A DNA stretch of 64,000 nt from NCBI GenBank assembly GCA_038114285.1, contig JAYNQN010000001.1, positions 120,454 through 184,453 of the forward strand, written 5' to 3'. The stretch comes from Gammaproteobacteria bacterium. Lineage in GTDB: Bacteria > Pseudomonadota > Gammaproteobacteria > Poriferisulfidales > GCA-002705445. Of the stretch, positions 4,430-62,291 are shown piece after piece. A program made the position numbers and the translations under genes. Under the pieces are notes generated by a model. The model was not told the origin of the DNA, ran no database searches, and was given only the letters and a program-made list of their open reading frames with translations. The stretch's first letter is position 1. Every line of letters begins with the position of its first letter.

Positions 4430-6390
4430 AATTAACAAGAAGCTGGTTAGAAGACTATATAGAAATACCTTATAGCACTGATGAAATGTGCCATCATCTT
4501 ACAATGGCAGGGCTAGAAGTAGATGATGTTTTTGAATCAGAAAATGATTTTATTATTGATATAGATTTAACTCCAAATAGATCAGACTGCTTATCAGTTT
4601 ACGGAATTGCTAGGGAGCTAAATTGTATTAATAAAAAGTATAAATTTAAAACTAAAAAAAATAATAATAATTCAATAATAGCAAAATCAAAAAACACAGA
4701 TAAAAAATTTGAGGTAGATAAAAAAGATTTTTGCCCAAAATATGGTTATATGTATTTAGAAAATATATCATTATCTAGCAAAACGCCAAATTATATAAAA
4801 CAAAAACTTGATGATATTGGAATAAAAACTATTCACCCAGTAGTAGATATTCTAAATTACATAATGATTGATATTGGCCAGCCAATGCACGCATATGATG
4901 CCGACAAAATTGGAGATAAGATTTCTGTTAAGCACTCAAAAAATAATGAGGCATTTATAGCACTTGATGGCAATGAATATAAATTAGAAAAAAATAATCT
5001 TGTTATAGTAGATCCTGAAAAAATAATTTCCCTCGCTGGAATCATAGGTGCTGAAGATTCTTCAGTGAAAAGCACTACAAGAAATATTATTATAGAAAGC
5101 GCTTTTTTTGTGCCAGAGGGTCTGGCTAATAAAGCTAGAAAACTTAAGCTACAAACCGAGTCATCTCAAAGATATGAACGTGGAGTTGATTATAATTTGC
5201 CAGAAAAAGCTCTAGCTAAATTGCAAAGTATATTATACGAAAACAGTATTTGTGATTTTTCTGATTTTAGTGTTATAGAGGAAAAGAGCTTTATTCCTAA
5301 AAAAAAAGAAGTTGTAATAAATCATGAGATGATTAAAAAAACAATTGGAATAGACATACAAGATGAAAAAATTTCAGAAATTCTTCTATCAATTGGCTGT
5401 GAATATAATCAAAAAACCAATAGTGTTCTAAATCCAAGTTATAGATATGATCTAAATATCCATGCAGACTATGTTGAAGAAGTATCTAGAATTTATGGAT
5501 ATGAAAATATCCCAGTGACTCCTGAGAAAATTGTAGTAAATGCAAAAAAATCTTATTTGCCATACAAAGTTATAAATGAAATCAAACAGTTTCTTTATGC
5601 TAATAGTTACTCAGAATGCATTAATTATTCTTTTGTTAACGATAGTCATATGGAAAATTTAGATTGGAAAAACAAAGAATTTATTGATCATTATAAAATA
5701 CAAAACTATATGAGTTTAGAGCAAAATAAACTTAGAAGTAATCTAGTTTCATCATTGATTAATAATATTGAATACAACAATAATGTAAATTCAGAAAATT
5801 CGTTTCGTTTATACGAAATAAGTACAGTATTTGGTAAAAAAACTGAGCAGGTCCTTACTTCTGTTGTTTGTGGAAATAAAGAAGATGAAAATTGGGCATC
5901 AAAAAAACAGAAGTTTGATAAATATGATATGACAACAATTGCTGAAGAAATAGCAAAATTATTTGGTTTAAATAAGTCGGATCTAGATTATGTAATAAAA
6001 GATATGCAGTATAATAAAAAGAACTATATTACGTTTTCCTTATCAATTAGTGATCTTATTGAAAAAATAAAACATAGTGAAATAGAAATGTTTAAAAATT
6101 ATTCAAAATTACCATATATAAGAAGAGACTTATCTTTTTTAATAGACGTATCTATAACCTATGAAACCATCTTAAAAACAATAGAAAAAATTAATGTACA
6201 TTCTCTAAAAAAAATATTACTCTTTGATTTATATGAGGGAAAAAACATTCCTGAACAGAAAAAAAGTTTAGGCATGGGTTTTGTTTTTCAAGATAAAAAC
6301 AAGACTTTGACGCACGAAGATGCGGATAGATATATAGCTACAATTTTAAAAGGACTTGAAGATAAATTTAAAATTGTATTAAGAAAATAA
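4426..6390 (+). CDS. pheT: Phenylalanyl-tRNA synthetase beta subunit (short form lacking the N-terminal tRNA-binding OB domain)
   Basis: 654 aa. It has the MKLTRSWL...MAGLEVDDV start, a B3/B4 region (GQPMHAYDADKI), a B5 region and a C-terminal FDX-ACB-like region. Compared with E. coli PheT (795 aa), the ~110-aa EMAP/Myf-like tRNA-binding insertion between LEVDGV and TPNRADC is absent; here the sequence reads LEVDDVFESENDFIIDIDLTPNRSDC. Confidence 0.9.
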   Translation: MKLTRSWLEDYIEIPYSTDEMCHHLTMAGLEVDDVFESENDFIIDIDLTPNRSDCLSVYGIARELNCINKKYKFKTKKNNNNSIIAKSKNTDKKFEVDKKDFCPKYGYMYLENISLSSKTPNYIKQKLDDIGIKTIHPVVDILNYIMIDIGQPMHAYDADKIGDKISVKHSKNNEAFIALDGNEYKLEKNNLVIVDPEKIISLAGIIGAEDSSVKSTTRNIIIESAFFVPEGLANKARKLKLQTESSQRYERGVDYNLPEKALAKLQSILYENSICDFSDFSVIEEKSFIPKKKEVVINHEMIKKTIGIDIQDEKISEILLSIGCEYNQKTNSVLNPSYRYDLNIHADYVEEVSRIYGYENIPVTPEKIVVNAKKSYLPYKVINEIKQFLYANSYSECINYSFVNDSHMENLDWKNKEFIDHYKIQNYMSLEQNKLRSNLVSSLINNIEYNNNVNSENSFRLYEISTVFGKKTEQVLTSVVCGNKEDENWASKKQKFDKYDMTTIAEEIAKLFGLNKSDLDYVIKDMQYNKKNYITFSLSISDLIEKIKHSEIEMFKNYSKLPYIRRDLSFLIDVSITYETILKTIEKINVHSLKKILLFDLYEGKNIPEQKKSLGMGFVFQDKNKTLTHEDADRYIATILKGLEDKFKIVLRK

Positions 6391-6407
6391 TATTAAGGAT
6401 GTAAGAA

Positions 6408-6704
6408 ATGGCGCTCACAAAGGCAGAAATTGCTGAACAACTATACGAAGAACTTGGTTTAAATAAAAGAGAAGCAAAAGAATTTGTTGAAGTTTTTTTT
6501 GGAGAGATTTCTGAAATTTTGGTATCTGGTTTTGACGTGAAAATCTCTGGTTTTGGAAATTTTGTTTTAAGAGATAAAAGCGAAAGGCCAGGAAGAAACC
6601 CAAAAACAGGTGAAGATGTGAAAATTAGCCCAAGAAGAGTTGTTACATTTAGAGCTGGTCAAAAGTTAAAGGCAAGGGTAGAAAATAATGCAATTAGTGA
6701 CTGA
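6408..6704 (+). CDS. ihfA: Integration host factor alpha subunit
   Basis: 98 aa, [12 protein letters not shown]...[10 protein letters not shown] is an HU/IHF-family signature; located downstream of pheT. Confidence 0.9.
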
Positions 6705-7047
6705 TGGAAAAATTAGTGAATCAATACCAAGTAAAAAATATTTTACTATTGGAGAAGTTAGTGAATTGTGTGATGTAAAATCTCATGTTTTAAGGTACTG
6801 GGAACAGGAGTTTCCAATGCTTTCACCAGTGAAAAGAAGGGGAAATAGAAGGTACTATCAAAGACACGATGTGCTTATGATTAGACAAATTAGAAGTCTT
6901 TTATATGAGCAAGGATATACAATCGAGGGTGCAAGAAAAAAATTATCAGATGATGATGCAAGCAATGATAACTCTATGTCATCACAGCTTGTCCATCAAT
7001 TATTATCTGAATTAGAAGATGTCTTGAATGTTCTAAAAAAAGATTAA
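6688..7047 (+). CDS. MerR-family transcriptional regulator
   Basis: [24 protein letters not shown] forms a helix-turn-helix of MerR type. A MerR-like gene follows ihfA in many gammaproteobacteria. The ORF overlaps ihfA by 17 nt and the true start is uncertain. Confidence 0.65.
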
Positions 7048-7078
7048 AATACAAATAAAACTAATAGAAGAAATATAA

Positions 7079-7843
7079 ATGAATAGCATAGATTTAGAAT
7101 TTATATTGGTCTTATTAATAATTATTAGTTTTATATTAATTTTAATTTCAAAAAAAAATTTAGGGAAAAAAAGCAGTTTCTTAAAATGGATTTTTTCTCA
7201 AGCAAAATCATTTTTGCCAATACTAATTATAGTTTTATTTTTAAGGTCTTTTTTAGCGGAACCTTTTAGGATACCGTCAGGCTCAATGCTGCCAACATTA
7301 CTTATTGGCGACTATATTTTAGTTAATAAGTACAATTATGGAATACGATTGCCAATTACAAAAACAAAGATAATTAATGTTTCAGATCCAAAAAGGGGTG
7401 ATGTGGTTGTTTTTAGGTATCCAGGCAATGAAAAAATCAATTTTATAAAGAGAGTAATTGGTTTGCCGGGAGATCAAATAAGGTATGAAGATAAAAATTT
7501 ATATGTAAATAACATAAAATACGAAAAAACACTGAAAAATACTCATATGTATGAGAATGAATTTTTAAGGCCAGAACTAGATATTTTTTTGGAGAGCAAT
7601 AGTAAGAATAAATCGTATTATGTATTAAATGACAATATGAGTCCCACAAATGATGACAATTTTATTGTCCCAGAAGGAAAATACTTTGTTATGGGAGATA
7701 ATAGAGATCATAGTAGTGATAGTAGATATTGGGGTTTTGTTCCAGATAAAAATCTTGTTGGAAAAGCATTTTTAATATGGATGAATTTTGATAGCAATAA
7801 ATATAGTTTAAAATATGAAAGAATAGGAAGCTCAATAAAATAA
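7079..7843 (+). CDS. lepB: Signal peptidase I
   Basis: GSMLPTLLIGDYILVNKYNYG and GDNRDHSSDSRYWGFV are S26 peptidase boxes; an N-terminal transmembrane segment is present. Confidence 0.9.
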   Translation: MNSIDLEFILVLLIIISFILILISKKNLGKKSSFLKWIFSQAKSFLPILIIVLFLRSFLAEPFRIPSGSMLPTLLIGDYILVNKYNYGIRLPITKTKIINVSDPKRGDVVVFRYPGNEKINFIKRVIGLPGDQIRYEDKNLYVNNIKYEKTLKNTHMYENEFLRPELDIFLESNSKNKSYYVLNDNMSPTNDDNFIVPEGKYFVMGDNRDHSSDSRYWGFVPDKNLVGKAFLIWMNFDSNKYSLKYERIGSSIK

Positions 7844-7848
7844 TATAT

Positions 7849-8532
7849 ATGATGAATAAATCTGACATAGAAAAATTATTATCACATAGTGTTATAAATT
7901 CAGAAATATATAAAGATGCTTTAACTCATAGAAGTGCAAGCAATAAAAATAATGAAAGGCTAGAATTTTTTGGAGATGCAATATTAGGTTTCATAGTTGC
8001 AGAATATCTTTATGAGAATTTCCCAAATGATGATGAAGGTTCTTTAAGCAGAAAAAGATCATACTTAGTTCGTAAGGAGACATTGAGTAAGATAGCTAAT
8101 TTTTATAATATTGGTAATAAAGTTATACTAGGCCAAGGTGAAAGAAAATCTGGAGGAAATAGAAGAGATTCTATAATCTCAGATACACTTGAAGCATTAA
8201 TAGCAGTAGTCTATATAATAGATGGTCCAAAAGAAGCCAAATTATTTATTCACAAAATATTTGATAAATATATAACAACTCTTCCTAGTAACGATGATCT
8301 TAAAGATTCTAAAACTAAACTTCAAGAATTATTGCAATCACATAATTGTAGTTTACCCCTATATGAAACAGATGAAATAAATGTAAATAAAAAAATTACT
8401 TTTGAAACTTTATGTAAAATAGCTGAACATAACATATGTGAAAACGGGGTAGGTTTAAATAAACGAAAGTCTCAGCAACAAGCAGCGGCAAAGGCATATA
8501 AAAAAGTCCTTGAAATCTATAAAAATGAATAG
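7849..8532 (+). CDS. rnc: Ribonuclease III
   Basis: Carries the ERLEFFGDAILG RNase III signature and a C-terminal dsRBD; lepB-rnc-era synteny. Confidence 0.95.
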   Translation: MMNKSDIEKLLSHSVINSEIYKDALTHRSASNKNNERLEFFGDAILGFIVAEYLYENFPNDDEGSLSRKRSYLVRKETLSKIANFYNIGNKVILGQGERKSGGNRRDSIISDTLEALIAVVYIIDGPKEAKLFIHKIFDKYITTLPSNDDLKDSKTKLQELLQSHNCSLPLYETDEINVNKKITFETLCKIAEHNICENGVGLNKRKSQQQAAAKAYKKVLEIYKNE

Positions 8533-9403
8533 TGGAAATATATCAATCATAGGCAAACCGAACGTTGGAAAATCGACTTTATTTAATCTATTAATTAGTA
8601 AGCATTTAGCAGGCGCAACAAGAAAACCTCAAACAACACGTCACAAAATAGACGGTGTACTTCATGAAAATAATACGGAATATATATTTGTTGACACACC
8701 TGGTATAAATTTTAATATTAGAAAAGATTTTAATAGAATTCTAAATAAAAATGCATTAACAGCAATGCATGAAGCTGATGTAATATTACACATAATTAAT
8801 TATAATAAAATTGACGAAGATGATTATAAAGTTATAGAAAATATTAAGAATATTAGTTCTTCAAAAATCCTTGTATTAAATAAGATTGATTTAGATAAAA
8901 ATAAAAATAAACTCCCAACAATTCTTACAAAAATACCAAATGAAATAGTTGGTATATATGATGAAATAATACCAATAAGTTCAAAAAAATCTGAAAATAT
9001 TACTAAACTAAAAAAAATAATAAAAAAATACTTACCGGATAATAGATCAAAAAAATTTAATGGAATAATAAGTACAAAACCTAGCGAGTTTTTTGTTGCT
9101 GAATATGTTCGTGAGGCATGCATAAAATATTTATCTGTCGAAGTACCTTATTCTTTACATGTTGAAATTAACAAATTTGAGGATGAAGAGAATTTAATTT
9201 CTGTAGCTGCAACTATTTTTTTGAAAAAAAATAGTCATTTAAGTATTGTAATTGGAAAAAATGGGTCTATGTTGGTTAAGATTAGCAAGTTTGCACGAAT
9301 TAATTCCGAAAAATTATTTAATAAAAAAGTTTATTTAAAAATTTTTGTTAAATATGATCCAAGGTGGAAAAATTCAGAAAGTTTTTTAAATTCATACAAA
9401 TAA
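8510..9403 (+). CDS. era: GTPase Era
   Basis: Has the G1 motif GKPNVGKST, DTPG, NKID and a C-terminal KH domain; overlaps rnc by 23 nt. Confidence 0.9.
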   Translation: MKSIKMNSGNISIIGKPNVGKSTLFNLLISKHLAGATRKPQTTRHKIDGVLHENNTEYIFVDTPGINFNIRKDFNRILNKNALTAMHEADVILHIINYNKIDEDDYKVIENIKNISSSKILVLNKIDLDKNKNKLPTILTKIPNEIVGIYDEIIPISSKKSENITKLKKIIKKYLPDNRSKKFNGIISTKPSEFFVAEYVREACIKYLSVEVPYSLHVEINKFEDEENLISVAATIFLKKNSHLSIVIGKNGSMLVKISKFARINSEKLFNKKVYLKIFVKYDPRWKNSESFLNSYK

Positions 9404-28295: not shown

Positions 28296-29300
28296 GTGAA
28301 ATACACTTTAAAAAAAATATCAGAAAAATTTGACGTTGATTTTATTGGTGATGAAGAATATGAAATTAACCAAGTTTCAAGTTTTGAAAATGCATCAAAA
28401 AATAGTGTTGTATTCTTCTCAGATAAGAAGTTTTTAAATTCTTTAAAAGAAACAAAATCTGAGGTTGTAATAACTACAAGAGAACTTTCAAAACTTTGTA
28501 AAAAAAATGTAATTCTTGCTAAAGACCCGCATTTATTATTTGCAAAAATATCTAAGTTATTTAATAAGAGAGAAATTATAAATTATGCAATTCATAACAG
28601 TGTTTATTCTCAAACAGACAATTTAAATAAAAAAATATTATTAGAGCCAAATGTTGTAATTGGTAAAAATGTAATTTTAGGTGATGATGTACATATAGGA
28701 GCTAACTCATATGTTGGTGACAATGTTAAAATTGGTTCAAATGTTTTTATATATCCAAATGTCACTATATATAAAGATATCTTTATTGGTAATAATGTAA
28801 TAATTCACTCAGGAACTGTGATTGGCTCGGATGGTTTTGGTTATGCTAATGAAAATAATATTTGGGTTAAAGTCCCGCAAACTGGAAGCGTTAGAATTGG
28901 TCATGATGTTGAAATAGGATCAAATACTTCTATAGATAGAGGTACCTTGAATGATACTGTTATTGGAAATGGTGTAAAAATAGACAATCAAATACAGATT
29001 GCACATAATGTTCATATTGGCGACAATACAGCAATAGCTGGATGTGTTGGTATTGCGGGAAGTGCGATAATTGGTAAAAATTGTACAATAGGTGGTGGAG
29101 CAGGAATACAAGGGCATATTAAAATTTGCGATAACACGCAGATAACAGGAATGACAAAAGTTTCGTGTGACATTAAAAAGCCTGGGGTATACTCTTCTGG
29201 AACACCTTTAATGCCAAATAATCAATGGCTGAAAAATGCTGTAAGGTTTAAACAATTAAATAAATTGTTTTTAAAAAATAAGAAAAGTAAAACGGAGTAA
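28296..29300 (+). CDS. lpxD: UDP-3-O-(3-hydroxyacyl)glucosamine N-acyltransferase
   Basis: 334 aa; a left-handed beta-helix with hexapeptide repeats; position upstream of fabZ-lpxA. Confidence 0.9.
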
Positions 29301-29304
29301 AGTC

Positions 29305-29763
29305 TTGAATAACAAAGGAGATATTTTGGAGATTATGAATCTCCTGCCACATAGATATCCATTTCTTTTGGTAGATAAAATTTTAGCATTTGAAGAAGGA
29401 AAATCTATAGTGTGCATTAAAAATGTGAGTTTAAATGAACCTTTTTTTAATGGGCATTTTCCAAAATACCCAGTAATGCCAGGAGTATTAATTTTAGAAG
29501 CACTAGCTCAAGCTTCAGGTTTGTTGGTATTTAAAACTTCTGAATTATGCCCACCCAATGAAAGTTTGTATTTATTTGTTGGAATAGATAAAGCAAGATT
29601 TAAAAGACCTGTCGTTCCAGGTGACCAAATTGAGCTTAAAGTTGAAATGTCAAAAAGTAGACAAGGTTTTGCAATATTTGATGCTGTCGCTTCAGTTGAA
29701 AATGAAGTTGTTGCTTCAGCAGAATTAATGTGCGGTTTTAAAGAATTACCAGAAAATATATAG
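29305..29763 (+). CDS. fabZ: 3-hydroxyacyl-ACP dehydratase FabZ
   Basis: [12 protein letters not shown] and [17 protein letters not shown] are hot-dog fold motifs. Confidence 0.95.
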
Positions 29764-29772
29764 GATATTATT

Positions 29773-30564
29773 TTGTCAAAAATCCATCCAACAGCAATTA
29801 TTGATCCCTCATGTGAGATTCATTCAACAGTGGAAATTGGACCATACTCTGTCATAGGAAAAAATGTAACGATTGAGGAAAATACAATTATTGGTCCACA
29901 TGTTGTTATTTCTAGTAATTGTGAAATTGGAAAAAATAATAAAATTTATCAATTTGCATCAATTTCAGAAGTCCCACAAGATAAAAAATATCAGGGAGAA
30001 AATTCAAAGTTAGTTATTGGGTCAGGAAACACAATTAGAGAATACTGCACTATAAACCGAGGTACAAAAGCGGGGGGAAACTCTGTAACTTTAGTAGGAG
30101 ATAATAACTGGATAATGGCTTATGTACATATCGCACATGATTGTTTGATAGGTAATAATAATATTATGTCTAATGCTACATCTTTAGCAGGACATGTAGA
30201 GATTGGAAATAATATAGTATTAGCAGGATATGTTTTGGTGCATCAATTTTGTAGAATTGGAGATTATTCTTTTGCTGGCATGGGAGCTGCATTAAATCAA
30301 GATTTACCCCCATACCTTTTGGCAACCGGAAGTTTTGCGAAAACACATGGTCTAAATAGAGAAGGATTAAGAAGAAATAATTTTGATCAGAAGAAAATCA
30401 ATGCTTTGCATAAAGCTTATAAGTTAATCTTTAGATCAAGTAATAACCCAAAAAATACAAACGAGCTTGAAATTTTGAGTAATGAACATAATGAAGTGAA
30501 AAAATTATTAAACTTTATAGAAAAAAGTGAAAGAGGTGTAATACAGTCATCAAAGCAAGATTAG
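29773..30564 (+). CDS. lpxA: Acyl-ACP:UDP-GlcNAc O-acyltransferase
   Basis: 263 aa with hexapeptide repeats and a C-terminal helical domain; follows fabZ. Confidence 0.9.
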   Translation: MSKIHPTAIIDPSCEIHSTVEIGPYSVIGKNVTIEENTIIGPHVVISSNCEIGKNNKIYQFASISEVPQDKKYQGENSKLVIGSGNTIREYCTINRGTKAGGNSVTLVGDNNWIMAYVHIAHDCLIGNNNIMSNATSLAGHVEIGNNIVLAGYVLVHQFCRIGDYSFAGMGAALNQDLPPYLLATGSFAKTHGLNREGLRRNNFDQKKINALHKAYKLIFRSSNNPKNTNELEILSNEHNEVKKLLNFIEKSERGVIQSSKQD

Positions 30565-31700
30565 TTTTTTTTAAGCAAACGCTCTACTAAATCATAAATG
30601 TTTTCTTTAGATTTATCATCTAATAATTTACCTTCTAACGAGTCGTAGTCATCTAAAATCTTACTTATATAGTTTTTTTTATTTGTTAAATTTTCTATTT
30701 CACTCACCAAGTTATCACATGAAGCATTATATTGAATAAATTCTTTAATAGCATTTTTATTTAATACAATATTAACTAATGATATATATTTTATCTTTAC
30801 AAGAAACCTAGCAATAAAATATGTTAAATTAGATAACTTATAGAAAACGCACATAGGTATCTTTTTTAAAGCAATCTGCAAAGTAATTGTCCCAGAGGCA
30901 GCTACAGCAACTTTACACATATCAATAGTTTCATAAATATTCTTATTTGATATAAATTTAATATAGTTTTTTTCTGGAAAATTTTTTCTAAAAAAATCTT
31001 TATTTATATTACTTGAGCATGATATTAAAAACTTTTCTAAAGGATATTTTTTGTGGTATTTTTCAATAACACTTTTAATTATAGGAATATGTTTTTTAAC
31101 TTCATTTAGTCTACTGCCAGGAAAGAAGCCAATATATTTATAATTATTATGATATTTCTTTTTATATAAATTATTTTCTACAAGCGGATGCCCTACATAG
31201 GTAGCATTTACACCAAGTTTATTGTAATAATTTTTCTCGAATGGAAATATTACAGCCATTTCATCTACTGATTTTTTTATATTTTTAATTCTATTTTCTC
31301 TCCATGCCCAAACTTGAGGACTAATATAAAATAGAACTTTAATACCATTTTTTTTTGCATATCTTGCTAGTTTCATATTAAATTCTTGATAATCTATTAA
31401 TACCAATAAATCTGGTTTGATTGTTGTAATAGAATTTTTCATTTTATTTAGTGCACTTTTTAGTTTTGGGTATATTTTAAAAATTTCAATAAATCCAATC
31501 ACAGAAAGTTCTGATGAATTTACTATTATCTCTGCTTTAGTATCATGCATGTGAGTAGAACCCATGCCGTAAAATTTAATATGATTATATTTTGAAAGAT
31601 TATTAATAATATTTTTAGCATACATGTCTCCTGATTCTTCTCCTGCAACTAATATTATTTTTTTTATTTTTTTCATTTGATATTTTGTATTACTTCGCAA
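30561..31700 (-). CDS. lpxB: Lipid-A-disaccharide synthase
   Basis: 379 aa, GT19-like N-terminus (IILVAGEESGD). Sits on the opposite strand, overlapping the lpxA stop by 4 nt. Confidence 0.8.
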   Translation of the reverse strand: MRSNTKYQMKKIKKIILVAGEESGDMYAKNIINNLSKYNHIKFYGMGSTHMHDTKAEIIVNSSELSVIGFIEIFKIYPKLKSALNKMKNSITTIKPDLLVLIDYQEFNMKLARYAKKNGIKVLFYISPQVWAWRENRIKNIKKSVDEMAVIFPFEKNYYNKLGVNATYVGHPLVENNLYKKKYHNNYKYIGFFPGSRLNEVKKHIPIIKSVIEKYHKKYPLEKFLISCSSNINKDFFRKNFPEKNYIKFISNKNIYETIDMCKVAVAASGTITLQIALKKIPMCVFYKLSNLTYFIARFLVKIKYISLVNIVLNKNAIKEFIQYNASCDNLVSEIENLTNKKNYISKILDDYDSLEGKLLDDKSKENIYDLVERLLKKN

Positions 31701-32770
31701 ACTTTTTTAACTTCATCTTGAGTTAGATTTGGAAACATTGGTAGAGAAAGGCAGGTGTTTGCAATTAGATTTGAATTTTTGTATGCACATGAATCACTGT
31801 ATTTGTTTTTAAAAACTATTTGCTTTTCAAGCGACAAAGGATAATAAATTGCTGATGTAATATCATTTTTTTCTAATTCTTCTTTAATTGTATCTCTGGC
31901 TTCTGATGAAATAGTATATTGATGATAGACATGGAAACTATGATCTTCAGTTCTTGGTAGATTAATATAACTTATATTCTTTAATAAGCTGTTATAAGTC
32001 TTAGCTATATTTACTCTCTTTATGTTATTACTATCAATATACTTTAATTTTATATTTAATATTGCCGCTTGTATTTCATCTAGTCTGCTATTATAACCTA
32101 GTATGTTGTGATAGTATCTTTTGGAGCTACCATGGTTTTTTAATTTTTTGATAATATCATACGTCTCCTCGGAGTTTGTAGTCACCATACCACCATCACC
32201 GTAACAACCTAAATTTTTTGTTGGATAAAAACTAAAGCAGCCAATATCACCAATACTTCCAGTTCTTTGACAATTAATTCCAGCACCAAAACTTTGAGCA
32301 CAATCTTCAATTATTTTAATAGAGTCGTTATTGATTTCTTTTTTAAGTCCATTGATATCAAAAGGATTTCCAAATAGGTGAACTGGTATAATAGCTTTTG
32401 TTTTTTTTGTAATTTTTTTTAATATTTCATTTTTATCAATATTGTACGAATTTTTATCTATATCAGCGAATACTGGTTTAGCTCCAACATACATTATTGC
32501 CTCTAATGTAGATATAAAAGTAAAAGGAGTTGTTATAACTTCGTCATCTTTTTTAAGGCCAAGTGATCTTAATGCAAAATGAAGGGCATCAGTACCTGAA
32601 TTACATGATATTGCATATTTAGTCCCAATATATTTAGCAATATTTTTTTCAATAGATTCTACATTCTTCCCACCAATAAAACTGGTATTAGCAAAAACAT
32701 TCTCTAACTCAGCCTTAACTTCGTCTTTTATTAATGAATATTCTTTTTTTAAATCAAATTGAGGTATCAT
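31673..32770 (-). CDS. DegT/DnrJ/EryC1/StrS-family PLP-dependent sugar aminotransferase, putative UDP-3-keto-GlcNAc aminotransferase (GnnB-like)
   Basis: 365 aa with the sugar-aminotransferase fold (NSGTDALHFALRSLGL..., FSFYPTKNLGCYGDGG). Lies in the lipid A cluster next to lpxB and a Gfo/Idh/MocA oxidoreductase. Confidence 0.65.
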   Translation of the reverse strand: MIPQFDLKKEYSLIKDEVKAELENVFANTSFIGGKNVESIEKNIAKYIGTKYAISCNSGTDALHFALRSLGLKKDDEVITTPFTFISTLEAIMYVGAKPVFADIDKNSYNIDKNEILKKITKKTKAIIPVHLFGNPFDINGLKKEINNDSIKIIEDCAQSFGAGINCQRTGSIGDIGCFSFYPTKNLGCYGDGGMVTTNSEETYDIIKKLKNHGSSKRYYHNILGYNSRLDEIQAAILNIKLKYIDSNNIKRVNIAKTYNSLLKNISYINLPRTEDHSFHVYHQYTISSEARDTIKEELEKNDITSAIYYPLSLEKQIVFKNKYSDSCAYKNSNLIANTCLSLPMFPNLTQDEVKKVCEVIQNIK

Positions 32771-33693
32771 TTTTTTATAATTTTTGATATTTTTAAAGCA
32801 TACTGTAACGCATTAATACCATCATCTGCATTTACAATTGGTTTCTTTTTATTACTTATACAATTTAAAAAACTTTCTATCTCTTCTTTTAGCGAATCAT
32901 TATCAAGAAATTTATCCTGGGTTTTTTCAATATCTAATATACTACCTTTTTTAACTTTTTTATATGAATCTAGGATACAGTTCTGGTAATCAAGTGAATA
33001 ATACTCATTTTTTTGAAATACTCTCATTTTTCTTTCTATCTTATCACTTATTCTGCTTGACGAGAGGTTGCATACGCAGTTATTTTCAAACAGAATTCTT
33101 GCGTGAGCAATATCTATTGAATTTGTTAATACATTTATACCATTAGATTGAATATTTTTTATTTTTGAATTATTTAAGGATATAATAATATCAAGATCAT
33201 GAATCATCAAATCCATTATTACATCAACTTCAGTTCCTCTAATTTTAAAAGGTGATATTCTATTGCATTCTATAAACATTGGTTTTTTTATATGGCTAGA
33301 AAGTTTCGTAAAAGCTTTGTTAAACCTTTCTAAATGGCCAATTTGTAAAATTACGTTATTTTCTTCAGATAGTTTTTTAAGTGCTCTGGCTTCTTTTAAA
33401 TTACTTGCAAAGGGTTTTTCAATAAGAACATGTTTTTTATGTTTTATGAAGTATTTAGCTATTTTGAAATGAAGATTTGTTGGCACAACAATACTTACCG
33501 CGTCAACATAATTTATGATATCTTTAAAATCATGATATATTTTAACATTAAATTTTTTTGATATTTCATTACACCTATTTACATTAGTATCTACTATGCC
33601 TATTAGATCAGCAATTTTACTTTTGTAATATTTCTGTGCGTGAAATTCGCCTAGATACCCAACTCCTATAACAGCAACTTTAGTTTTTCTCAT
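32767..33693 (-). CDS. Gfo/Idh/MocA-family NAD-dependent oxidoreductase, putative UDP-GlcNAc 3-dehydrogenase (GnnA-like)
   Basis: 308 aa with an N-terminal Rossmann motif (KVAVIGVGYLGEFH); operonic with the aminotransferase and lpxB. Confidence 0.6.
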   Translation of the reverse strand: MRKTKVAVIGVGYLGEFHAQKYYKSKIADLIGIVDTNVNRCNEISKKFNVKIYHDFKDIINYVDAVSIVVPTNLHFKIAKYFIKHKKHVLIEKPFASNLKEARALKKLSEENNVILQIGHLERFNKAFTKLSSHIKKPMFIECNRISPFKIRGTEVDVIMDLMIHDLDIIISLNNSKIKNIQSNGINVLTNSIDIAHARILFENNCVCNLSSSRISDKIERKMRVFQKNEYYSLDYQNCILDSYKKVKKGSILDIEKTQDKFLDNDSLKEEIESFLNCISNKKKPIVNADDGINALQYALKISKIIKK

Positions 33694-33759
33694 GTTAAAA
33701 TATATTTTTGTATCTAGGTTACTTATGTACGATAATTGTTATTTATTATAATCTAGTTT

Positions 33760-34326
33760 ATGAAAAAAAAATATACAATTGTTGGTATTGATGAGGCTGG
33801 AAGAGGGCCATTGGCAGGACCTGTTGTCGCTGCTTCTGTTATTATAGATGAAAAAGAGCTTCCAGAAAAAATAAATGACTCAAAGAAGATTAGTGAAAAA
33901 AATAGACAATCATATTATGAAGTTATAATTGATAAAGCATACCAATTTGGTATTGGAATTGTGAGTCCAAGTGAAATTGATACAATTAATATTCATAATG
34001 CTACTTTAAAAGCTATGAAAATTTCTTATGAAAAATTGAATTGTAAAGATCCTAAAATATACATTGATGGTATATATAAGCCAGATATATGCGGGGATTC
34101 ATATGCAATAAAACATGGAGATAGATTAGTGCCTATAATAAGCGCTGCTTCAATACTTGCAAAAGTAACGCGAGATAAAATAATGATGAAAATTGATGAA
34201 GAATTTCCAGTGTATGATTTTAAAAGTCACAAAGGATATCCAACTAAACATCATATAGAAATGATAAAAAAATATGGTACATGTGAATATCATAGAAAAA
34301 CCTTTAAACCAATTAAGTTATTATGA
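33760..34326 (+). CDS. rnhB: Ribonuclease HII
   Basis: IVGIDEAGRGPLAGPVVAA; 188 aa. Confidence 0.95.
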   Translation: MKKKYTIVGIDEAGRGPLAGPVVAASVIIDEKELPEKINDSKKISEKNRQSYYEVIIDKAYQFGIGIVSPSEIDTINIHNATLKAMKISYEKLNCKDPKIYIDGIYKPDICGDSYAIKHGDRLVPIISAASILAKVTRDKIMMKIDEEFPVYDFKSHKGYPTKHHIEMIKKYGTCEYHRKTFKPIKLL

Positions 34327-42824: not shown

Positions 42825-44370
<1,546 letters not shown>

Positions 44371-53182: not shown

Positions 53183-54406
53183 ATGCTCTTAATTATAAAT
53201 AAATTAAAAAATGCAGATGTATATTTGTTACCAATAGCAATTTTTTTTATATTAATATCATCTGCAGGTACAAATATATTTATTTTATTAGCAGTATTAT
53301 TTTCATTGGTACACTGCATATACAAAAAAAATTACCAAATTCTATTTGAGAAAAATTTCCTTAAGATTTGCTTTTTAATATATTTTCTATTTTTAATATC
53401 GTCTTTATATAGTATTAGTAATTTTGAAGAAATAATTAGCTCTTTAAAAAAATATATTAAATTTCTATATATTCCTTTTATATATTACATTGTCAAAATA
53501 CATAAAAATGAAAAATTAATAATTAATTTTTTTATATTTGGCTCAACAATTATTTTGGCTTTGTCATATTTAAAATACTTTAATATATTCAATTTTGATA
53601 GTTTCTATGAATTTTTAAAAAATACTAATATTGCAAACCCTAAAGATAAAATAATTATTAATAAAACTTCCGTTTTTCAGAATTATATTGTGCATGGTGT
53701 TGTTTTTTCTTTTTATTCATTTCTTTGTTTTTATCTTGCAAAAAAAAATAATATCTTACAATATTATTCATTATCCTTAATGTCTTTATTAAACGTGTTA
53801 TTATTAAATGATTCACGCAAAGGATATATAATTATTTTAATTTTATCTGTTTTTACTTTTTTTCAATTAATTTCTAGCAATAAAATACGCTTATCAATAT
53901 TATTAATTTTTGGCTCAATATTTTTTACGCATTTTTCTGATAATTTATTAAATAGAGTAAATGTCTTAAGTAGTGATTTGTATTTTATAGATAAAAATAA
54001 TTATAATACATCGTTAGGTTATAGGTATATATGGACTAAAGTAGGAGTTGATAATCTTGCAAAGAAGCCTTTATTTGGTTTTGGTGCGGGGTCATACGAA
54101 AAAACGTCTGTAAGATATTATAAGGATAATAATGTAAATGATTATGATAGTTACATTACGAATAACCCACACAATGAATTTATAAGTATTTCAACCCAAT
54201 TGGGTTTAGTTGGTTTATCTTTATTTTTTATTTTTTTATATAATTTGTTTAAAGATTCAAATTACCAAACCGTTCCAATTGGTATAGTTATAACTGTTTT
54301 TGTTTCATCATTATTTAACAGCGCTTTTTATGATAATATGCTAGGATTATTTCTAATAATTATAATTAGTCTTTTATATCAAAATAATTTTAAAATTAAA
54401 AATTAA
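53183..54406 (+). CDS. waaL: O-antigen ligase (WaaL / Wzy_C-domain) family polytopic membrane protein
   Basis: About 10 predicted transmembrane helices and a periplasmic loop with GFGAGSYE...NNPHNEFISISTQLGLVGL, matching the Wzy_C/O-antigen-ligase signature. Confidence 0.6.
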   Translation: MLLIINKLKNADVYLLPIAIFFILISSAGTNIFILLAVLFSLVHCIYKKNYQILFEKNFLKICFLIYFLFLISSLYSISNFEEIISSLKKYIKFLYIPFIYYIVKIHKNEKLIINFFIFGSTIILALSYLKYFNIFNFDSFYEFLKNTNIANPKDKIIINKTSVFQNYIVHGVVFSFYSFLCFYLAKKNNILQYYSLSLMSLLNVLLLNDSRKGYIIILILSVFTFFQLISSNKIRLSILLIFGSIFFTHFSDNLLNRVNVLSSDLYFIDKNNYNTSLGYRYIWTKVGVDNLAKKPLFGFGAGSYEKTSVRYYKDNNVNDYDSYITNNPHNEFISISTQLGLVGLSLFFIFLYNLFKDSNYQTVPIGIVITVFVSSLFNSAFYDNMLGLFLIIIISLLYQNNFKIKN

Positions 54407-54412
54407 TAGAAA

Positions 54413-55213
54413 ATGAAATTTTTGCAAAATAATCTAGCAGTTAAAGATATTATTTTTTCTTTTAAAAATTTTTATTCTTGGTCATATTTATCTTATTTTG
54501 ACCTAAAATTAAAATATCGAAGAACATTTCTTGGGCCTTGGTGGGTTGTACTAGGAATTGCTATTTCCGCAACTGCGATGTGTTTCTTATGGAGTACAAT
54601 TTTTAATTTAGACTGGAAATCATATTTAACATATTTGTTTTCTGGTTTTATTATATGGATGTGGATAAGTCAACTTGTAATTGATGCGCCTGATATATTC
54701 TGTGGTAGCGCGTCAAAATATATTAAAGCTTACCCCAATCCTCCTATTTTTTATGTCTTTAGAAAATGTTTTTTAAGTTTTTTACTTTTTTTACACCATA
54801 TACCTCTTATAATTTTAGTAACAATCTTAGTAAATCAAAAAATTAATATAATTGTTATATATACACTACCTATAGGTTTATTTTTAATTTTTATAAATTC
54901 TATATTATTTACTACTATTATTGGAATGGTTTCTGCAAGGTATCGAGATATTGATCCTTTAGTGAAATCATTAATGCCGCCTATGCTCTTATTAACACCA
55001 GTATTATGGAAACCTGAAATGCTAGGCGAATATCATTCATACGTTTATTTAAATCCATTTACACATTTTGTAGGCATAGTTAGAAATGATTTAATTGGTT
55101 TGGAGTTTGATTTAAAAATATGGATTGGCGCTATTCTGATAACAATTTTTCAATTAATAATATTTTTTTTACTTTACTCAAAAAAGAGTAAAAGAATTGT
55201 ATTTTGGGTTTAA
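54413..55213 (+). CDS. wzm: ABC-2 type polysaccharide export permease (Wzm/KpsM-like)
   Basis: 266 aa, six transmembrane helices, an ABC-2 fold; overlaps the next ATPase gene. Confidence 0.75.
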   Translation: MKFLQNNLAVKDIIFSFKNFYSWSYLSYFDLKLKYRRTFLGPWWVVLGIAISATAMCFLWSTIFNLDWKSYLTYLFSGFIIWMWISQLVIDAPDIFCGSASKYIKAYPNPPIFYVFRKCFLSFLLFLHHIPLIILVTILVNQKINIIVIYTLPIGLFLIFINSILFTTIIGMVSARYRDIDPLVKSLMPPMLLLTPVLWKPEMLGEYHSYVYLNPFTHFVGIVRNDLIGLEFDLKIWIGAILITIFQLIIFFLLYSKKSKRIVFWV

Positions 55214-55974
55214 TTATGAGGTCAGAAATTATATTAAAAAATGTAAATTTAGATTTTCCGATATATGATGTTGAGTCATTATCTATAAGGAACAAAATAA
55301 GTAATTTTGGAAAAGTTATAGTTAATAAAACTTCTACAAATAAGTCTGGCTCTAGAATTGTTAAAGGCCTAAAAAATATTAATTTTAATATGAATCATGG
55401 AGATAGAATCGCTCTTCTTGGCCCCAACGGATCTGGTAAAACAACATTATTAAAACTTCTTGCTGGAATATATTCGCCAACATCGGGCACCCTAAGTAAA
55501 ATTGGTGATATAAGTTGTATGTTAGATATTGGATTTGGATTTGAACAAGACGCTACTGGATATGAAAATATAATATTATCAAATATTACACGAGGCCTGT
55601 CTAAAGATGATATTGAAAAAATATTACCAGATATTGCTGAATTTAGTGGCTTAGGGGAATTTTTAGATATGCCTTTCAGAACATATTCCAGTGGAATGCA
55701 AGCGAGACTTGCTTTTTCTTCAGCTATAGCAAATACCCCAGATATATTGTTAATAGATGAATTTTTTTCTACAGGCGATATTGATTTTTCAGAAAAAAGT
55801 AAAAAAAAGGTTTTGAAGATGATGGATAACTCATCAATATTAGTATTTGCATCACACGATCTAGAATTACTAGACTCAATATGCAATAAAGCTATATGTA
55901 TGCATAGTGGAGAAATAATTTTCTCAGGCAGTACGAAGGAAGCAATTGCACAATATAAATCAATTTATGAATAA
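55204..55974 (+). CDS. wzt: ABC polysaccharide export ATP-binding protein (Wzt/KpsT-like, no C-terminal carbohydrate-binding domain)
   Basis: Walker A GPNGSGKTT, signature YSSGMQARL, Walker B LLIDEF; 256 aa. Confidence 0.8.
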   Translation: MGLIMRSEIILKNVNLDFPIYDVESLSIRNKISNFGKVIVNKTSTNKSGSRIVKGLKNINFNMNHGDRIALLGPNGSGKTTLLKLLAGIYSPTSGTLSKIGDISCMLDIGFGFEQDATGYENIILSNITRGLSKDDIEKILPDIAEFSGLGEFLDMPFRTYSSGMQARLAFSSAIANTPDILLIDEFFSTGDIDFSEKSKKKVLKMMDNSSILVFASHDLELLDSICNKAICMHSGEIIFSGSTKEAIAQYKSIYE

Positions 55975-57418
55975 AAAATATAACTTAGATTATAAAGTAG
56001 ACCCATCATTTCAATGCACAAAATATGTAAAAGCTCATAATGAGAATAATTTTACTAAGCATAGTTACAAAGACCATATCGTTAGAGCAGATCTTTGTAG
56101 CTCTTTAATCTCGATACTTTTTAACACAAACAATATTGATACCTCCCTTTATTCAATAAAAAAATTTATAGATAAATCTGATGACCCAGCAAAATTACAA
56201 TTTTGTATAAAGATTGATAATGAATCTAATGTTACAGAAGAATTTTTAAAAAAAATATCTAAATATAAAAGTAATTTTGTAATCATCTCATCTCCAAAAG
56301 GCAGAGGTTACTTGGATCTTTGGCAATGGATTAATTTTTTATACAAAATTTCATCTAGAAAATCAAAATTTGTGATGAATATATCTGACGAAATGTATGT
56401 AAATGAAGATAAATGGGATAAGTTGTTAGAAAAATATTTAAATTTGACAGACGATAGAATTTTTCGTTTAAGAACATCTGTATATAAAAATAGAAATTAT
56501 AGCACTTTATTTGAATGCGGATATGCTCCAGACACAACTGCAATATATTCAAGAAAATATATTGAACTGCAAGGCGATTTTTCACCTTGTTTCGGACCTG
56601 ATAACGGTCAGCAATTTGTCGCATACTATTTAGCAACAATTAACTACCCAAGACATTATCAATTTTTAAGAGATTTTGTAATAGAAACAATTAGTTTTAA
56701 AGGCCAAGGAACAAATAAAGGTTTAGAAGGAGAATCAAGAAATCAAAGACTAGTGGATAATTATTTACTTTGGATAAATATGTTCAAATTTAAATTTCAA
56801 AGTATTTATTTGAAAAGAGCAAGAAAAATTCAAGTGGAAATTTTAAAATTTAATTTTCCAGATATTAATATAGTAGACAATATTTTTAAGCAAAGATTTG
56901 AACTAAGGTATACAGATGAAAATAATAGAAAAAATATAGTTTTAAAATTGTCATACAAAATATCAAAAATTAAACATTTGTGGCACAACATTAGTAAAAT
57001 AAATTTTTTTAAATGGCATACAGGTTATGATAGACCTTTAATATATGGAGTATTGACACATATATGCGTAAAATTTTTAAAAAAATTTCCAAAATTAAAA
57101 TCAGCAAAAAAAACATCTAATCCTATACTTATAAGAGTAATAGATAATTTTAGTGATAAGAGTTTAAAAATAAATAAGTCAATTAATTCAAGAATAAGAG
57201 TTTTAGAAAAATTTAAAATAATGGAATTCACAATATTTATTATTGCAATAATTTTATTAATTGTAATCTTTGTAGCAACATTTCCTAGTTTTAAAACTAA
57301 TTTATTAATACTTAATCAAAGATTTAAAATAATTAAAATTTATTCAAGAAAAAATTCATTTATTATCTCAAATAATAAAATAGATCAATCAAAAACAGTT
57401 GTTATAAGAGGCGATTAA
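55946..57418 (+). CDS. Hypothetical 490-aa protein with a single C-terminal transmembrane anchor; no recognisable family
   Basis: Lys/Asn-rich soluble region followed by a hydrophobic helix MEFTIFIIAIILLIVIFVATF near the C-terminus. Embedded in the glycan cluster between wzt and the nucleotidyltransferase. Confidence 0.4.
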   Translation: MHNINQFMNKKYNLDYKVDPSFQCTKYVKAHNENNFTKHSYKDHIVRADLCSSLISILFNTNNIDTSLYSIKKFIDKSDDPAKLQFCIKIDNESNVTEEFLKKISKYKSNFVIISSPKGRGYLDLWQWINFLYKISSRKSKFVMNISDEMYVNEDKWDKLLEKYLNLTDDRIFRLRTSVYKNRNYSTLFECGYAPDTTAIYSRKYIELQGDFSPCFGPDNGQQFVAYYLATINYPRHYQFLRDFVIETISFKGQGTNKGLEGESRNQRLVDNYLLWINMFKFKFQSIYLKRARKIQVEILKFNFPDINIVDNIFKQRFELRYTDENNRKNIVLKLSYKISKIKHLWHNISKINFFKWHTGYDRPLIYGVLTHICVKFLKKFPKLKSAKKTSNPILIRVIDNFSDKSLKINKSINSRIRVLEKFKIMEFTIFIIAIILLIVIFVATFPSFKTNLLILNQRFKIIKIYSRKNSFIISNNKIDQSKTVVIRGD

Positions 57419-57421
57419 TTT

Positions 57422-58612
57422 ATGAAGCAATGTGTAATTCTAGTTGGTGGAAAAGGAACTAGGCTAGGTGAGTTAACTAAAAATACACCAAAGCCAATGT
57501 TAGAGATAAATAATAAGCCTTTTTTACTTTACATAATTGAAACTATCGTTAGATATGGATTTACAGAAATAATACTATTAGCATCACATGCAAATAAAGT
57601 TCTAATAGATTACTTTAAAAAGAATAGCTATAAAAATTGCAAGATTAAGATTATTGTTGAGGAGGAACCGCTAGGGACAGGTGGTGCTTTAGTAAATGCA
57701 TTTGAGCATTTAAATGACAGTTTTTTTTGCTTAAATGGAGATTCTATAATTGAAGGTAATTGGTTATCTTTAGTTGAAAATTTTGATACTAATGCAGATG
57801 TTGTTATTGGACTTACCGAAACGAATGATTCATCTCGCTACGGGTCAATTGAAATACAAAATAAAAAAATTATTTCTTTTAATGAGAAGAATGAAAGTTC
57901 AAAATCTAAATTAATAAATGGAGGTATTTATTTACTGCGAAAATCTATATTTAAAAATCTTAAAAAAAATTTTATATCATTGGAAAATGATATATTTCCC
58001 AATATAGTTAATTCAGGAAAAGCTAATGGATTAAAAATAAAAGGTTTTTTTATAGACATTGGAACAGTTAAATCTTTAGAGTATGCAAGAAAAAGAGATT
58101 GGCAGAAAGATAAAAAAGCCGTGGTCTTTGATAGAGATGGTACACTAAATCATGATGAAGGATACACATATAAGATAGAAGACTTGTCATGGACTGACGG
58201 CGCTATAGATTTAATAAAATATCTAAATAACAATAATTATTTAGTTTTTGTTGCAACCAATCAAGCTGGTATAGCAAAAGGTAAATTCCTAGAAAGTGAT
58301 ATGTTTAAATTTCATGAAAATATGCAAGAGCAATTAAGAAAAGTAGGGGCACATATAGATAAATTTTATTATTGCCCATTCCATATTGAAGGGGTAGTTG
58401 ATAAATATAAAATTGATAGTAATGACAGAAAGCCTAATGTTGGGATGTTGCAAAGTATCTATCAAGAATGGAATTTACAAAAAAGCAAAATGATTATGAT
58501 AGGAGATAGAGACACTGACATAGAGTGCGCAGAAAAATTTAAAATACAGGGTTATAAATACAATATTAAAGATGATATAATGGAATTTTTTAAAAATAAA
58601 ATTAATTTTTAA
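57422..58612 (+). CDS. Bifunctional sugar-1-phosphate nucleotidyltransferase (HddC-like) / D-glycero-D-manno-heptose 1,7-bisphosphate phosphatase (GmhB)
   Basis: N-terminus VILVGGKGTRLGELTKNTPKPML is the NTP_transferase G-x-G-T-R-L motif. The C-terminal ~180 aa are colinear with E. coli GmhB: VFDRDGTLN...GY, VATNQAGIAKGKF, YYCPFH, RKPNVGML, MIGDRDTDIECA. Confidence 0.8.
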   Translation: MKQCVILVGGKGTRLGELTKNTPKPMLEINNKPFLLYIIETIVRYGFTEIILLASHANKVLIDYFKKNSYKNCKIKIIVEEEPLGTGGALVNAFEHLNDSFFCLNGDSIIEGNWLSLVENFDTNADVVIGLTETNDSSRYGSIEIQNKKIISFNEKNESSKSKLINGGIYLLRKSIFKNLKKNFISLENDIFPNIVNSGKANGLKIKGFFIDIGTVKSLEYARKRDWQKDKKAVVFDRDGTLNHDEGYTYKIEDLSWTDGAIDLIKYLNNNNYLVFVATNQAGIAKGKFLESDMFKFHENMQEQLRKVGAHIDKFYYCPFHIEGVVDKYKIDSNDRKPNVGMLQSIYQEWNLQKSKMIMIGDRDTDIECAEKFKIQGYKYNIKDDIMEFFKNKINF

Positions 58613-58617
58613 ATACA

Positions 58618-59313
58618 ATGAATTATGAAAATTTTATAAATGAGTTCAATAAAAAAGGGTATTTTATTCTTTCTGGAGTTTTTGAATCAAAAGATTGCGA
58701 AAAAATTATATCCGAAGCAAATAAAATTAAAGAAAAAGACAATAATTATCTTCCCTTAATGAATCCACATAAAAATTCTAAATCCATAATGGAAGCTATG
58801 GGAAATAAAACAATAATAAGATTTATAGAGTCTTATTTTAAAAATGAGGTTTATGGTTTACAAACAGAGTTTTTTTTTATGCCTCCACATACAAAAGGTT
58901 TTACGCCTCATCAAGATAATACATACGTGCAGGCTGATGAAAATTCATTTGTATCGGCTTGGGTTGCCCTTACAGATGTAAATGAAAAAAATGGTGGTTT
59001 GATAATTTGGCCAATGTCACATAAAGAAAAAAAACTGCAATCTTTGGAAAATATAGAAGAAAAATCATTTAATCAAGACCCTAACGCCAGAAGTAGAATA
59101 ACTATACTCCCGGATAGCTATAAAAAGATTACGCCATCTATAAAAAAAGGTGATGTTATTATGATTCATAGTTGGTTAGTTCATGCTTCAAATGATAACA
59201 AGTCTAAAGCAAATAGAAATGCCTTGTTATGCACTTATTTGAAAAAAGACGCAAATTTTAGGCCTGGAAATACTGCGAAAAGAAAACCTTTCAAATTAAT
59301 ATCTAATTTATGA
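58618..59313 (+). CDS. Phytanoyl-CoA dioxygenase (PhyH) family Fe(II)/2-oxoglutarate-dependent oxygenase
   Basis: 231 aa; HQD facial-triad motif (FTPHQDNTY) and a distal His in IHSWLVHAS; PhyH-like length and spacing. Confidence 0.6.
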   Translation: MNYENFINEFNKKGYFILSGVFESKDCEKIISEANKIKEKDNNYLPLMNPHKNSKSIMEAMGNKTIIRFIESYFKNEVYGLQTEFFFMPPHTKGFTPHQDNTYVQADENSFVSAWVALTDVNEKNGGLIIWPMSHKEKKLQSLENIEEKSFNQDPNARSRITILPDSYKKITPSIKKGDVIMIHSWLVHASNDNKSKANRNALLCTYLKKDANFRPGNTAKRKPFKLISNL

Positions 59314-60200: not shown

Positions 60201-60205
60201 AAAAT

Positions 60206-61153: not shown

Positions 61154-61158
61154 TAATA

Positions 61159-62208: not shown

Positions 62209-62291
62209 AATTTTTATTTTTTTTATTTGGTCAATAATTTGATATTATAAAAATAATGTTATTTTATAAATATTATAAACAAGGAATTTAA

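Follow-up and report, generated by a model that had tools for sequence, protein, structure and literature searches.

Predicted GnnA and GnnB genes coupled to lpxB point to a diamino-sugar lipid A in an uncultured marine gammaproteobacterium

Two enzymes of Acidithiobacillus ferrooxidans, the oxidoreductase GnnA and the transaminase GnnB, are described as converting UDP-N-acetylglucosamine (UDP-GlcNAc) for the production of lipid A that contains 2,3-diamino-2,3-dideoxyglucose (GlcN3N) (PMC8036547, PMC3342949, PMC7663294), and Legionella pneumophila is counted among the species with GlcN3N-containing lipid A (PMC8036547). Here we address a pair of adjacent genes found in a 64-kb stretch of contig JAYNQN010000001.1 (hereafter the window, meaning that whole stretch), which is dense in coding sequence, has a GC content of about 29% (mean 0.289) and belongs to a metagenome-assembled genome (MAG) of a marine gammaproteobacterium. 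Positions 31673-33693 of the window are filled exactly by two open reading frames (ORFs) of the minus strand, 365 and 308 amino acids (aa) long, which we consider to be probable orthologues of gnnB and gnnA, respectively, supplying a diamino sugar to a lipid A backbone that would contain GlcN3N. The GnnA/GnnB pathway, known since 2004, is well characterized and widespread, thus the present case extends its distribution and adds no new mechanism. An earlier note on this DNA, made from its letters alone, had placed an oxidoreductase and a DegT-family aminotransferase in this interval, and Pfam confirms both families at exactly these coordinates.

In the Acidithiobacillus locus used for comparison (L085, found through the GnnA homologue P0123) a single strand carries rseP-bamA-skp-lpxD-fabZ-lpxA-gnnA-gnnB-lpxB-rnhB-dnaE. 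Gene content and gene order agree in the window, the sole difference being the inversion of gnnA-gnnB-lpxB. Plus-strand cdsA, dxr, rseP, bamA, skp, lpxD, fabZ and lpxA are followed by minus-strand lpxB (30561-31676), gnnB (31673-32770) and gnnA (32767-33693), past which rnhB, dnaE and accA resume the plus strand; along the chromosome the order is lpxA, then lpxB, gnnB and gnnA, then rnhB, with the three-gene unit opposite in strand to lpxD-fabZ-lpxA and converging on lpxA. The A. ferrooxidans arrangement, to which the earlier note had likened this locus, is accordingly found as regards genes, neighbours and the succession gnnA-gnnB-lpxB, and departed from in the orientation of the block; in the same way the pair does adjoin lpxD-fabZ-lpxA directly, as had been said of it, though from the opposite strand. 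In both genomes the proteins belong to the same two families and the neighbours are lpxD-fabZ-lpxA, lpxB, rnhB and dnaE, while sequence identity is 36% for GnnA and 42% for GnnB, the window comes from a marine gammaproteobacterium of about 29% GC, and the spacing of genes is different: 4-bp overlaps in the window versus gaps of 69 bp and 4 bp in Acidithiobacillus. The stop codon of gnnA overlaps the start of gnnB in an ATGA at 32767-32770, and the stop of gnnB overlaps the ATG of lpxB at 31676, again as ATGA. These overlapping start and stop codons at both junctions support co-transcription of gnnA-gnnB-lpxB, in agreement with what had been proposed for the pair and lpxB, and the translational coupling of the unit ties amino-sugar supply to lipid A assembly.

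The 308-aa product of gnnA, a predicted NAD-dependent UDP-GlcNAc 3-dehydrogenase of the Gfo/Idh/MocA family, matches Pfam GFO_IDH_MocA (PF01408) at 102.6 bits together with the C-terminal domain of this family (PF02894). Its best match in the PDB is 7BVJ/7BVK (E 5.6e-56, 193 bits, over residues 5-302), followed by a Thermotoga-type dehydrogenase at E 2.8e-17 and 66 bits and then by inositol dehydrogenases; neither WbpB nor WlbA occurs by name among the best 60 PDB matches (E limit 10; reaching E 4.4e-4). The structures 7BVJ and 7BVK are those of A. ferrooxidans GnnA, and the genus is confirmed by the 97-99% identity of the 7BVJ sequence to Acidithiobacillus proteins. BLASTP of the window protein against GnnA of the Acidithiobacillus locus gave 36% identity at E 7e-66, and the window protein shares with 7BVJ the nucleotide-binding GxGxxG in the form VIGVGYLG, the EKP motif LIEKPF and the block DVIMDLMIHDLD of twelve residues. 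Of the NCBIfam models, that of the archaeal UDP-GlcNAc 3-dehydrogenase (NF040723) scores highest (205 bits); it is aligned over the full length (residues 5-302 of 308), and its substrate, by the name of the model, is UDP-GlcNAc. Since 205 bits stand against a cutoff of 450, the window protein resembles this family but is no member of it, differing also in its bacterial host and in its lipid A context. On these comparisons the oxidoreductase is clearly of GnnA type.

The 365-aa product of gnnB, a predicted pyridoxal phosphate (PLP)-dependent UDP-3-keto-GlcNAc aminotransferase of the DegT family, matches Pfam DegT_DnrJ_EryC1 (PF01041) at 384.6 bits (E 6.4e-115) and Acidithiobacillus GnnB at 320-324 bits with 42.5% identity in BLASTP. 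When all candidates were scored in a uniform BLASTP run, 7B0D came first (345 bits), followed by Acidithiobacillus GnnB (324), WbpE (271, 37.6% identity), QdtB (261) and 7N63 (259). Compared with the PDB, Acidithiobacillus GnnB gives much the same picture, with 7B0D leading (351 bits), the DesV-type 2OGA second and WbpE at about 275 bits. In a neighbour-joining tree the aminotransferases adjacent to gnnA (that of the window and those of 20 other loci) formed one clade, comprising the window's own group and Acidithiobacillus but not WbpE, with bootstrap support of 71/100. WbpE falls into the same DegT subgroup as the window enzyme, and Lys185 of the latter (FSFYPTKNLG) pairs without gaps with WbpE residue 185 (TSFFPSKPLG), which we take to be the PLP-binding lysine. 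By location the window aminotransferase is a positional orthologue of GnnB, standing between gnnA and lpxB both here and in Acidithiobacillus. Judged from sequence alone the GnnB assignment would be of moderate strength; sequence and positional orthology together make a strong case for it.

In the pathway predicted from orthology GnnA would carry out NAD+-dependent oxidation of the 3-hydroxyl of UDP-GlcNAc to a 3-keto sugar, and GnnB, a PLP enzyme, would transaminate this ketone to UDP-2-acetamido-3-amino-2,3-dideoxyglucose (UDP-GlcNAc3N). The predicted consumer of this product is LpxA, the acyl-ACP UDP-GlcNAc/UDP-GlcNAc3N acyltransferase encoded at 29773-30564 on the plus strand, which would N-acylate the new 3-amine; LpxC, LpxD, an LpxH-type enzyme and LpxB would then act as usual in the Raetz pathway. 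The resulting lipid A is expected to contain GlcN3N with primary acyl chains linked by amide and not by ester bonds at positions 3 and/or 3'. We estimate at about 0.85 the probability that the two ORFs are GnnA/GnnB orthologues making UDP-GlcNAc3N for lipid A with a GlcN3N-containing backbone. The earlier note had predicted a GlcN3N backbone, and it is the presence of GlcN3N that homology and gene order support, while pure GlcN3N and a hybrid are not separable from sequence.

The linkage of gnnA to lipid A genes was surveyed in the 80 relatives most similar to the window protein, chosen from 584 oxidoreductase relatives collected by a pattern scan with one genome per species. An lpx gene lies within the examined flank of the gnnA homologue in 39 of these 80 genomes, and in 34 lpxB directly follows gnnA or gnnA-gnnB. 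The exact layout of the window, with rnhB diverging from a gnnA-gnnB-lpxB unit that converges on lpxA-fabZ-lpxD, was found in marine relatives at 62-78% identity (L005-L008) and also in Chromatiales, Thiohalomonadaceae and other gammaproteobacterial MAGs (L012, L025, L034, L042, L054). A collinear lpxA-gnnA-(gnnB)-lpxB order like that of Acidithiobacillus is present in deltaproteobacterial MAGs, in one Nitrospirota MAG and in one MAG labelled Pedobacter, and two MAGs of Ectothiorhodospiraceae/Spiribacter have an lpxA'-gnnA-gnnB module located between rnhB and dnaE. The same gene backbone exists in Escherichia coli with lpxA abutting lpxB and without gnn genes. Legionella and Fluoribacter resemble the window in that rnhB diverges from gnnA...lpxB, and their GnnA is closer to the window protein (46-50% identity) than that of Acidithiobacillus; they differ in having lpxB directly after gnnA, with gnnB and lpxA not found in the flanks examined. 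In all five loci of this kind (L013, L015, L017, L041 and L057, about 6300-9100 in each) gnnB is missing between gnnA and lpxB, so these genomes must have the gene of the aminotransferase partner at another place. Because the arrangement recurs in distant relatives, the inversion appears to be old and not peculiar to the window. Relatives at 62-98% identity carry both ORFs of the window unbroken and at full length. That the block was acquired recently by horizontal transfer was considered and found unsupported: gnnA, gnnB and lpxB have a GC content of 0.23-0.28, a little under the window mean, and the inversion is common to distant relatives.

Several observations weigh against the proposed assignment. 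No probed gene adjoins the gnnA homologue in 37 of the 80 cases surveyed, the majority of them in Steroidobacteraceae, so that family membership alone is no proof of a role in lipid A synthesis. The oxidoreductase stays below the cutoff of the sole relevant NCBIfam equivalog, which is, moreover, an archaeal model; the top PDB match of the aminotransferase is 7B0D; and the margin of this enzyme over WbpE and QdtB is moderate, the clade support of 71/100 coming from a simple neighbour-joining tree with four outgroups only. LpxA, in turn, is an ordinary gammaproteobacterial enzyme with no special likeness to the UDP-GlcNAc3N-selective enzyme of Leptospira.

The same chemistry at C3, oxidation followed by PLP-dependent transamination, is performed by WbpB and WbpE (WlbA and WlbC) in the ManNAc3NAcA pathway of Pseudomonas aeruginosa and Bordetella, and the pair might be imagined to act there, on the route from UDP-GlcNAcA to 2,3-diacetamido-2,3-dideoxy-uronic acids for O-antigen or capsule, with the adjacency of lpxB being incidental. 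This would agree with the WbpE-reaction label that JGI gives to a member of the 90%-identity cluster of the aminotransferase, with the match to WbpE, which at 271 bits is still strong, and with a polysaccharide cluster at 53-63 kb of the same window. That cluster holds no Gfo/Idh/MocA or DegT gene, and gnnA-gnnB are translationally coupled to lpxB in a context of lipid A and not of O-antigen. The comparison of GnnA/GnnB with WbpB/WbpE, by which the earlier note had proposed to judge the pair, comes out in favour of the former on both sides: 193 bits for 7BVJ with no WbpB/WlbA name in the best 60 matches, and 324 bits for GnnB versus 271 for WbpE. The Wbp route also needs the 6-dehydrogenase WbpA, the N-acetyltransferase WbpD and the 2-epimerase WbpI (PMC10622841). 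Among those ORFs of the 64-kb window that are 100 aa or longer, Pfam detects no UDP-sugar 6-dehydrogenase, WbpD-type acetyltransferase or UDP-GlcNAc 2-epimerase, and hexapeptide repeats occur otherwise in a DapD-type succinyltransferase only. With wbpA, wbpD and wbpI not found in the window and a dehydrogenase that is not WbpB-like, participation of the pair in a Wbp pathway looks very unlikely. It is also improbable, in our judgement, that UDP-GlcNAc3N is made mainly for another glycan, for instance by an archaeal-type route through UDP-GlcNAc3NAc and its uronic acid to a surface polysaccharide or glycoprotein, with lipid A being based on glucosamine (GlcN). The archaeal identity of the best NCBIfam model of the oxidoreductase and the homologues without an lpx neighbour speak for such a use, but the gnn-lpx cluster has no N-acetyltransferase or glycosyltransferase gene, and even E. 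coli LpxA reportedly accepts UDP-GlcNAc3N, so that this sugar, when formed, should find its way into lipid A. Besides, the genome is streamlined and keeps the gnn genes in one overlapping unit with lpxB amid lpxD-fabZ-lpxA...rnhB, and their linkage to lipid A genes is repeated in Acidithiobacillus and Legionella, the lipid A of both containing GlcN3N (PMC8036547). Supply of UDP-GlcNAc3N to lipid A thus remains the reading that we prefer.

Whether such a backbone would be pure or mixed is a question addressed to LpxA. The window enzyme matches NF003657 at 350 bits (cutoff 226), keeps the HIAHDC motif with the equivalent of E. coli His125 and finds its best PDB matches in LpxA of Burkholderia, Pseudomonas and E. 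coli (258-228 bits), with that of L. interrogans at 226 bits; in the sugar-site segment the Leptospira enzyme is the weakest LpxA match (65.9 bits versus 90-105). Residues discriminating UDP-GlcNAc3N, for which LpxA was inspected as the earlier note had advised, were not found in it. The sole candidate was the triplet PQD, in which Pro precedes the equivalent of E. coli Q73 (NQD in E. coli) and which occurs in 27 of 28 LpxA sequences linked to gnnA. It was dropped as a marker after failing in controls, being present also in LpxA of Helicobacter pylori (1J2Z) and Moraxella (5JXX), and both these bacteria make GlcN lipid A. Selectivity of the Leptospira enzyme reportedly arises from the orientation of a backbone carbonyl, and E. 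coli LpxA reportedly takes both substrates; given these two properties, sequence cannot settle the choice between a pure and a hybrid backbone. The hydrocarbon-ruler position of LpxA (E. coli G173) is occupied by Met in the window enzyme. In P. aeruginosa M169 is said to set C10 selectivity, and Met at the ruler position suggests that the 3-hydroxyacyl chains at 3 and 3' may be short, about C10.

A hybrid or mixed GlcN3N-GlcN backbone of the kind made by Campylobacter jejuni and Capnocytophaga canimorsus would refine and not replace the supply of UDP-GlcNAc3N to lipid A, and we regard it as a tentative possibility, worth keeping in mind though not the form that we favour. In C. canimorsus, equipped with both gnnA and gnnB, over 95% of the lipid A is of the hybrid GlcN3N'-GlcN form (PMC3342949), and the similarity of the window LpxA to the GlcN-type enzymes of Burkholderia, Pseudomonas and E. 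coli, together with its least likeness to the selective Leptospira enzyme in the sugar-site segment, points the same way. On the other hand, C. canimorsus has two lpxA paralogues (PMC3342949) and the window cluster has one, though another copy might be located beyond the 64 kb, and Legionella, with its gnnA among the closest beyond the window's own clade, builds GlcN3N into its backbone. A second, divergent lpxA does adjoin gnnA, in addition to the canonical lpxA, in some other gammaproteobacterial MAGs, namely of Ectothiorhodospiraceae, Spiribacter and one other (L065, 6234-9071; L070, 6228-9057; L078, 3-2477). Such an additional lpxA might encode an acyltransferase reserved for UDP-GlcNAc3N.

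A wider proposal may be built on the same arrangement, and we offer it as doubtful. The inverted coupled unit could be an old trait, held in common by MAGs of Chromatiales and Thiohalomonadaceae, by the planktonic lineage of the window and, though lacking gnnB, by Legionellaceae, in which case GlcN3N lipid A would be ancestral to much of Proteobacteria and lost in the enteric and pseudomonad lines. The host, a widespread ocean bacterium, would then have lipid A with amide bonds throughout and four N-linked chains, the primary ones probably being short (C10) in view of Met at the ruler position of LpxA. If true, part of the endotoxin in the sea would differ in chemical stability and in immune or assay reactivity.

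As for the expression of the unit, the sole non-coding space upstream of gnnA-gnnB-lpxB is the 66-bp region separating the divergent genes gnnA and rnhB (33694-33759), and for this reason the promoter is presumed to lie there. The region holds a TATAAT; a promoter scan of 29700-34000 returned 27 sites versus 30.5 expected, that is, no better than chance. At the opposite end the stop codons of convergent lpxA (plus strand, TAG) and lpxB (minus strand, TAA) overlap within the TTAG at 30561-30564. A scan of 29700-34000 revealed no terminator-like hairpins, and in combination with this overlap it implies that transcription from each side must enter the other gene. The last gene of the unit, lpxB, encodes lipid A disaccharide synthase (TIGR00215, 251.6 bits at a cutoff of 190; Pfam LpxB, 301.5 bits). 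As a mechanical ORF it extends over 30561-31700 from a TTG at 31700, and its start is likely the ATG at 31676: gene callers chose a 371-aa lpxB from the equivalent ATG on four near-identical Tara/ENA contigs (L001-L004), the layout of which is the same as that of the window. Of the genes on the lpxA side, lpxD (28296-29300, plus strand) matches NF002060 at 409 bits, and fabZ (29305-29763, plus strand) was recognized from its translation and from the FabA-family Pfam match of the identical gene in one of these contigs (L001).

Two other loci of the window deserve mention. The surface-polysaccharide cluster at 53183-63302 comprises genes for a Wzy_C/WaaL-type ligase, an ABC-2 permease with its ATPase, an NTP_transferase-HAD fusion, a PhyH-family dioxygenase, a thiamine diphosphate (TPP)-dependent E1 alpha/beta pair and a dTDP-glucose 4,6-dehydratase-like enzyme, as well as proteins of 490 and 296 aa without a Pfam match; PhyH together with the TPP-dependent E1 pair is an unusual combination for an O-antigen locus. 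The enolase gene (42825-44108) is broken by an in-frame TAA at 43128-43130 into a 5' part with the Enolase_N ORF (42825-43130) and a 3' part with the Enolase_C ORF (43158-44108). Enolase of E. coli presumably has Glu at the position of this TAA, so the stop would be a single GAA>TAA change; an error of sequencing or assembly, variation between strains or a pseudogene could each account for it.

The window proteins are identical to MEL0102025-MEL0102031 of NCBI, deposited for a 'Gammaproteobacteria bacterium' MAG, where the products of gnnA and gnnB are named 'Gfo/Idh/MocA family oxidoreductase' (MEL0102028) and 'DegT family aminotransferase' (MEL0102027). The JGI name of the member of the gnnB product's 90%-identity cluster is 'UDP-2-acetamido-2-deoxy-ribo-hexuluronate aminotransferase', that is, the WbpE reaction, unsupported by the evidence collected here. 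Public annotation of the pair thus appears to be generic in the first case and aimed at the wrong pathway in the second. No rRNA gene is present in the 64-kb window, and its GC content of 29% falls short of the 31-40% given for SAR86, an order that was considered for the host; members of its protein clusters occur also on contigs of up to 1.1 Mb, and close relatives of the host come from Tara Oceans samples. Amide-linked chains go along with lower activation of Toll-like receptor 4 and higher resistance to cationic peptides in C. jejuni, according to mutant data quoted in PMC8036547, and recognition by this receptor hardly concerns directly a bacterium that lives free in the sea. The prediction made here is sound and would hardly surprise a lipid A specialist. 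What is gained by re-reading the two ORFs as GnnA and GnnB is a concrete prediction that can be tested on the outer membrane of this marine gammaproteobacterium, uncultured and streamlined, in which amide-linked chains would take the place of ester-linked ones at position 3 of lipid A.

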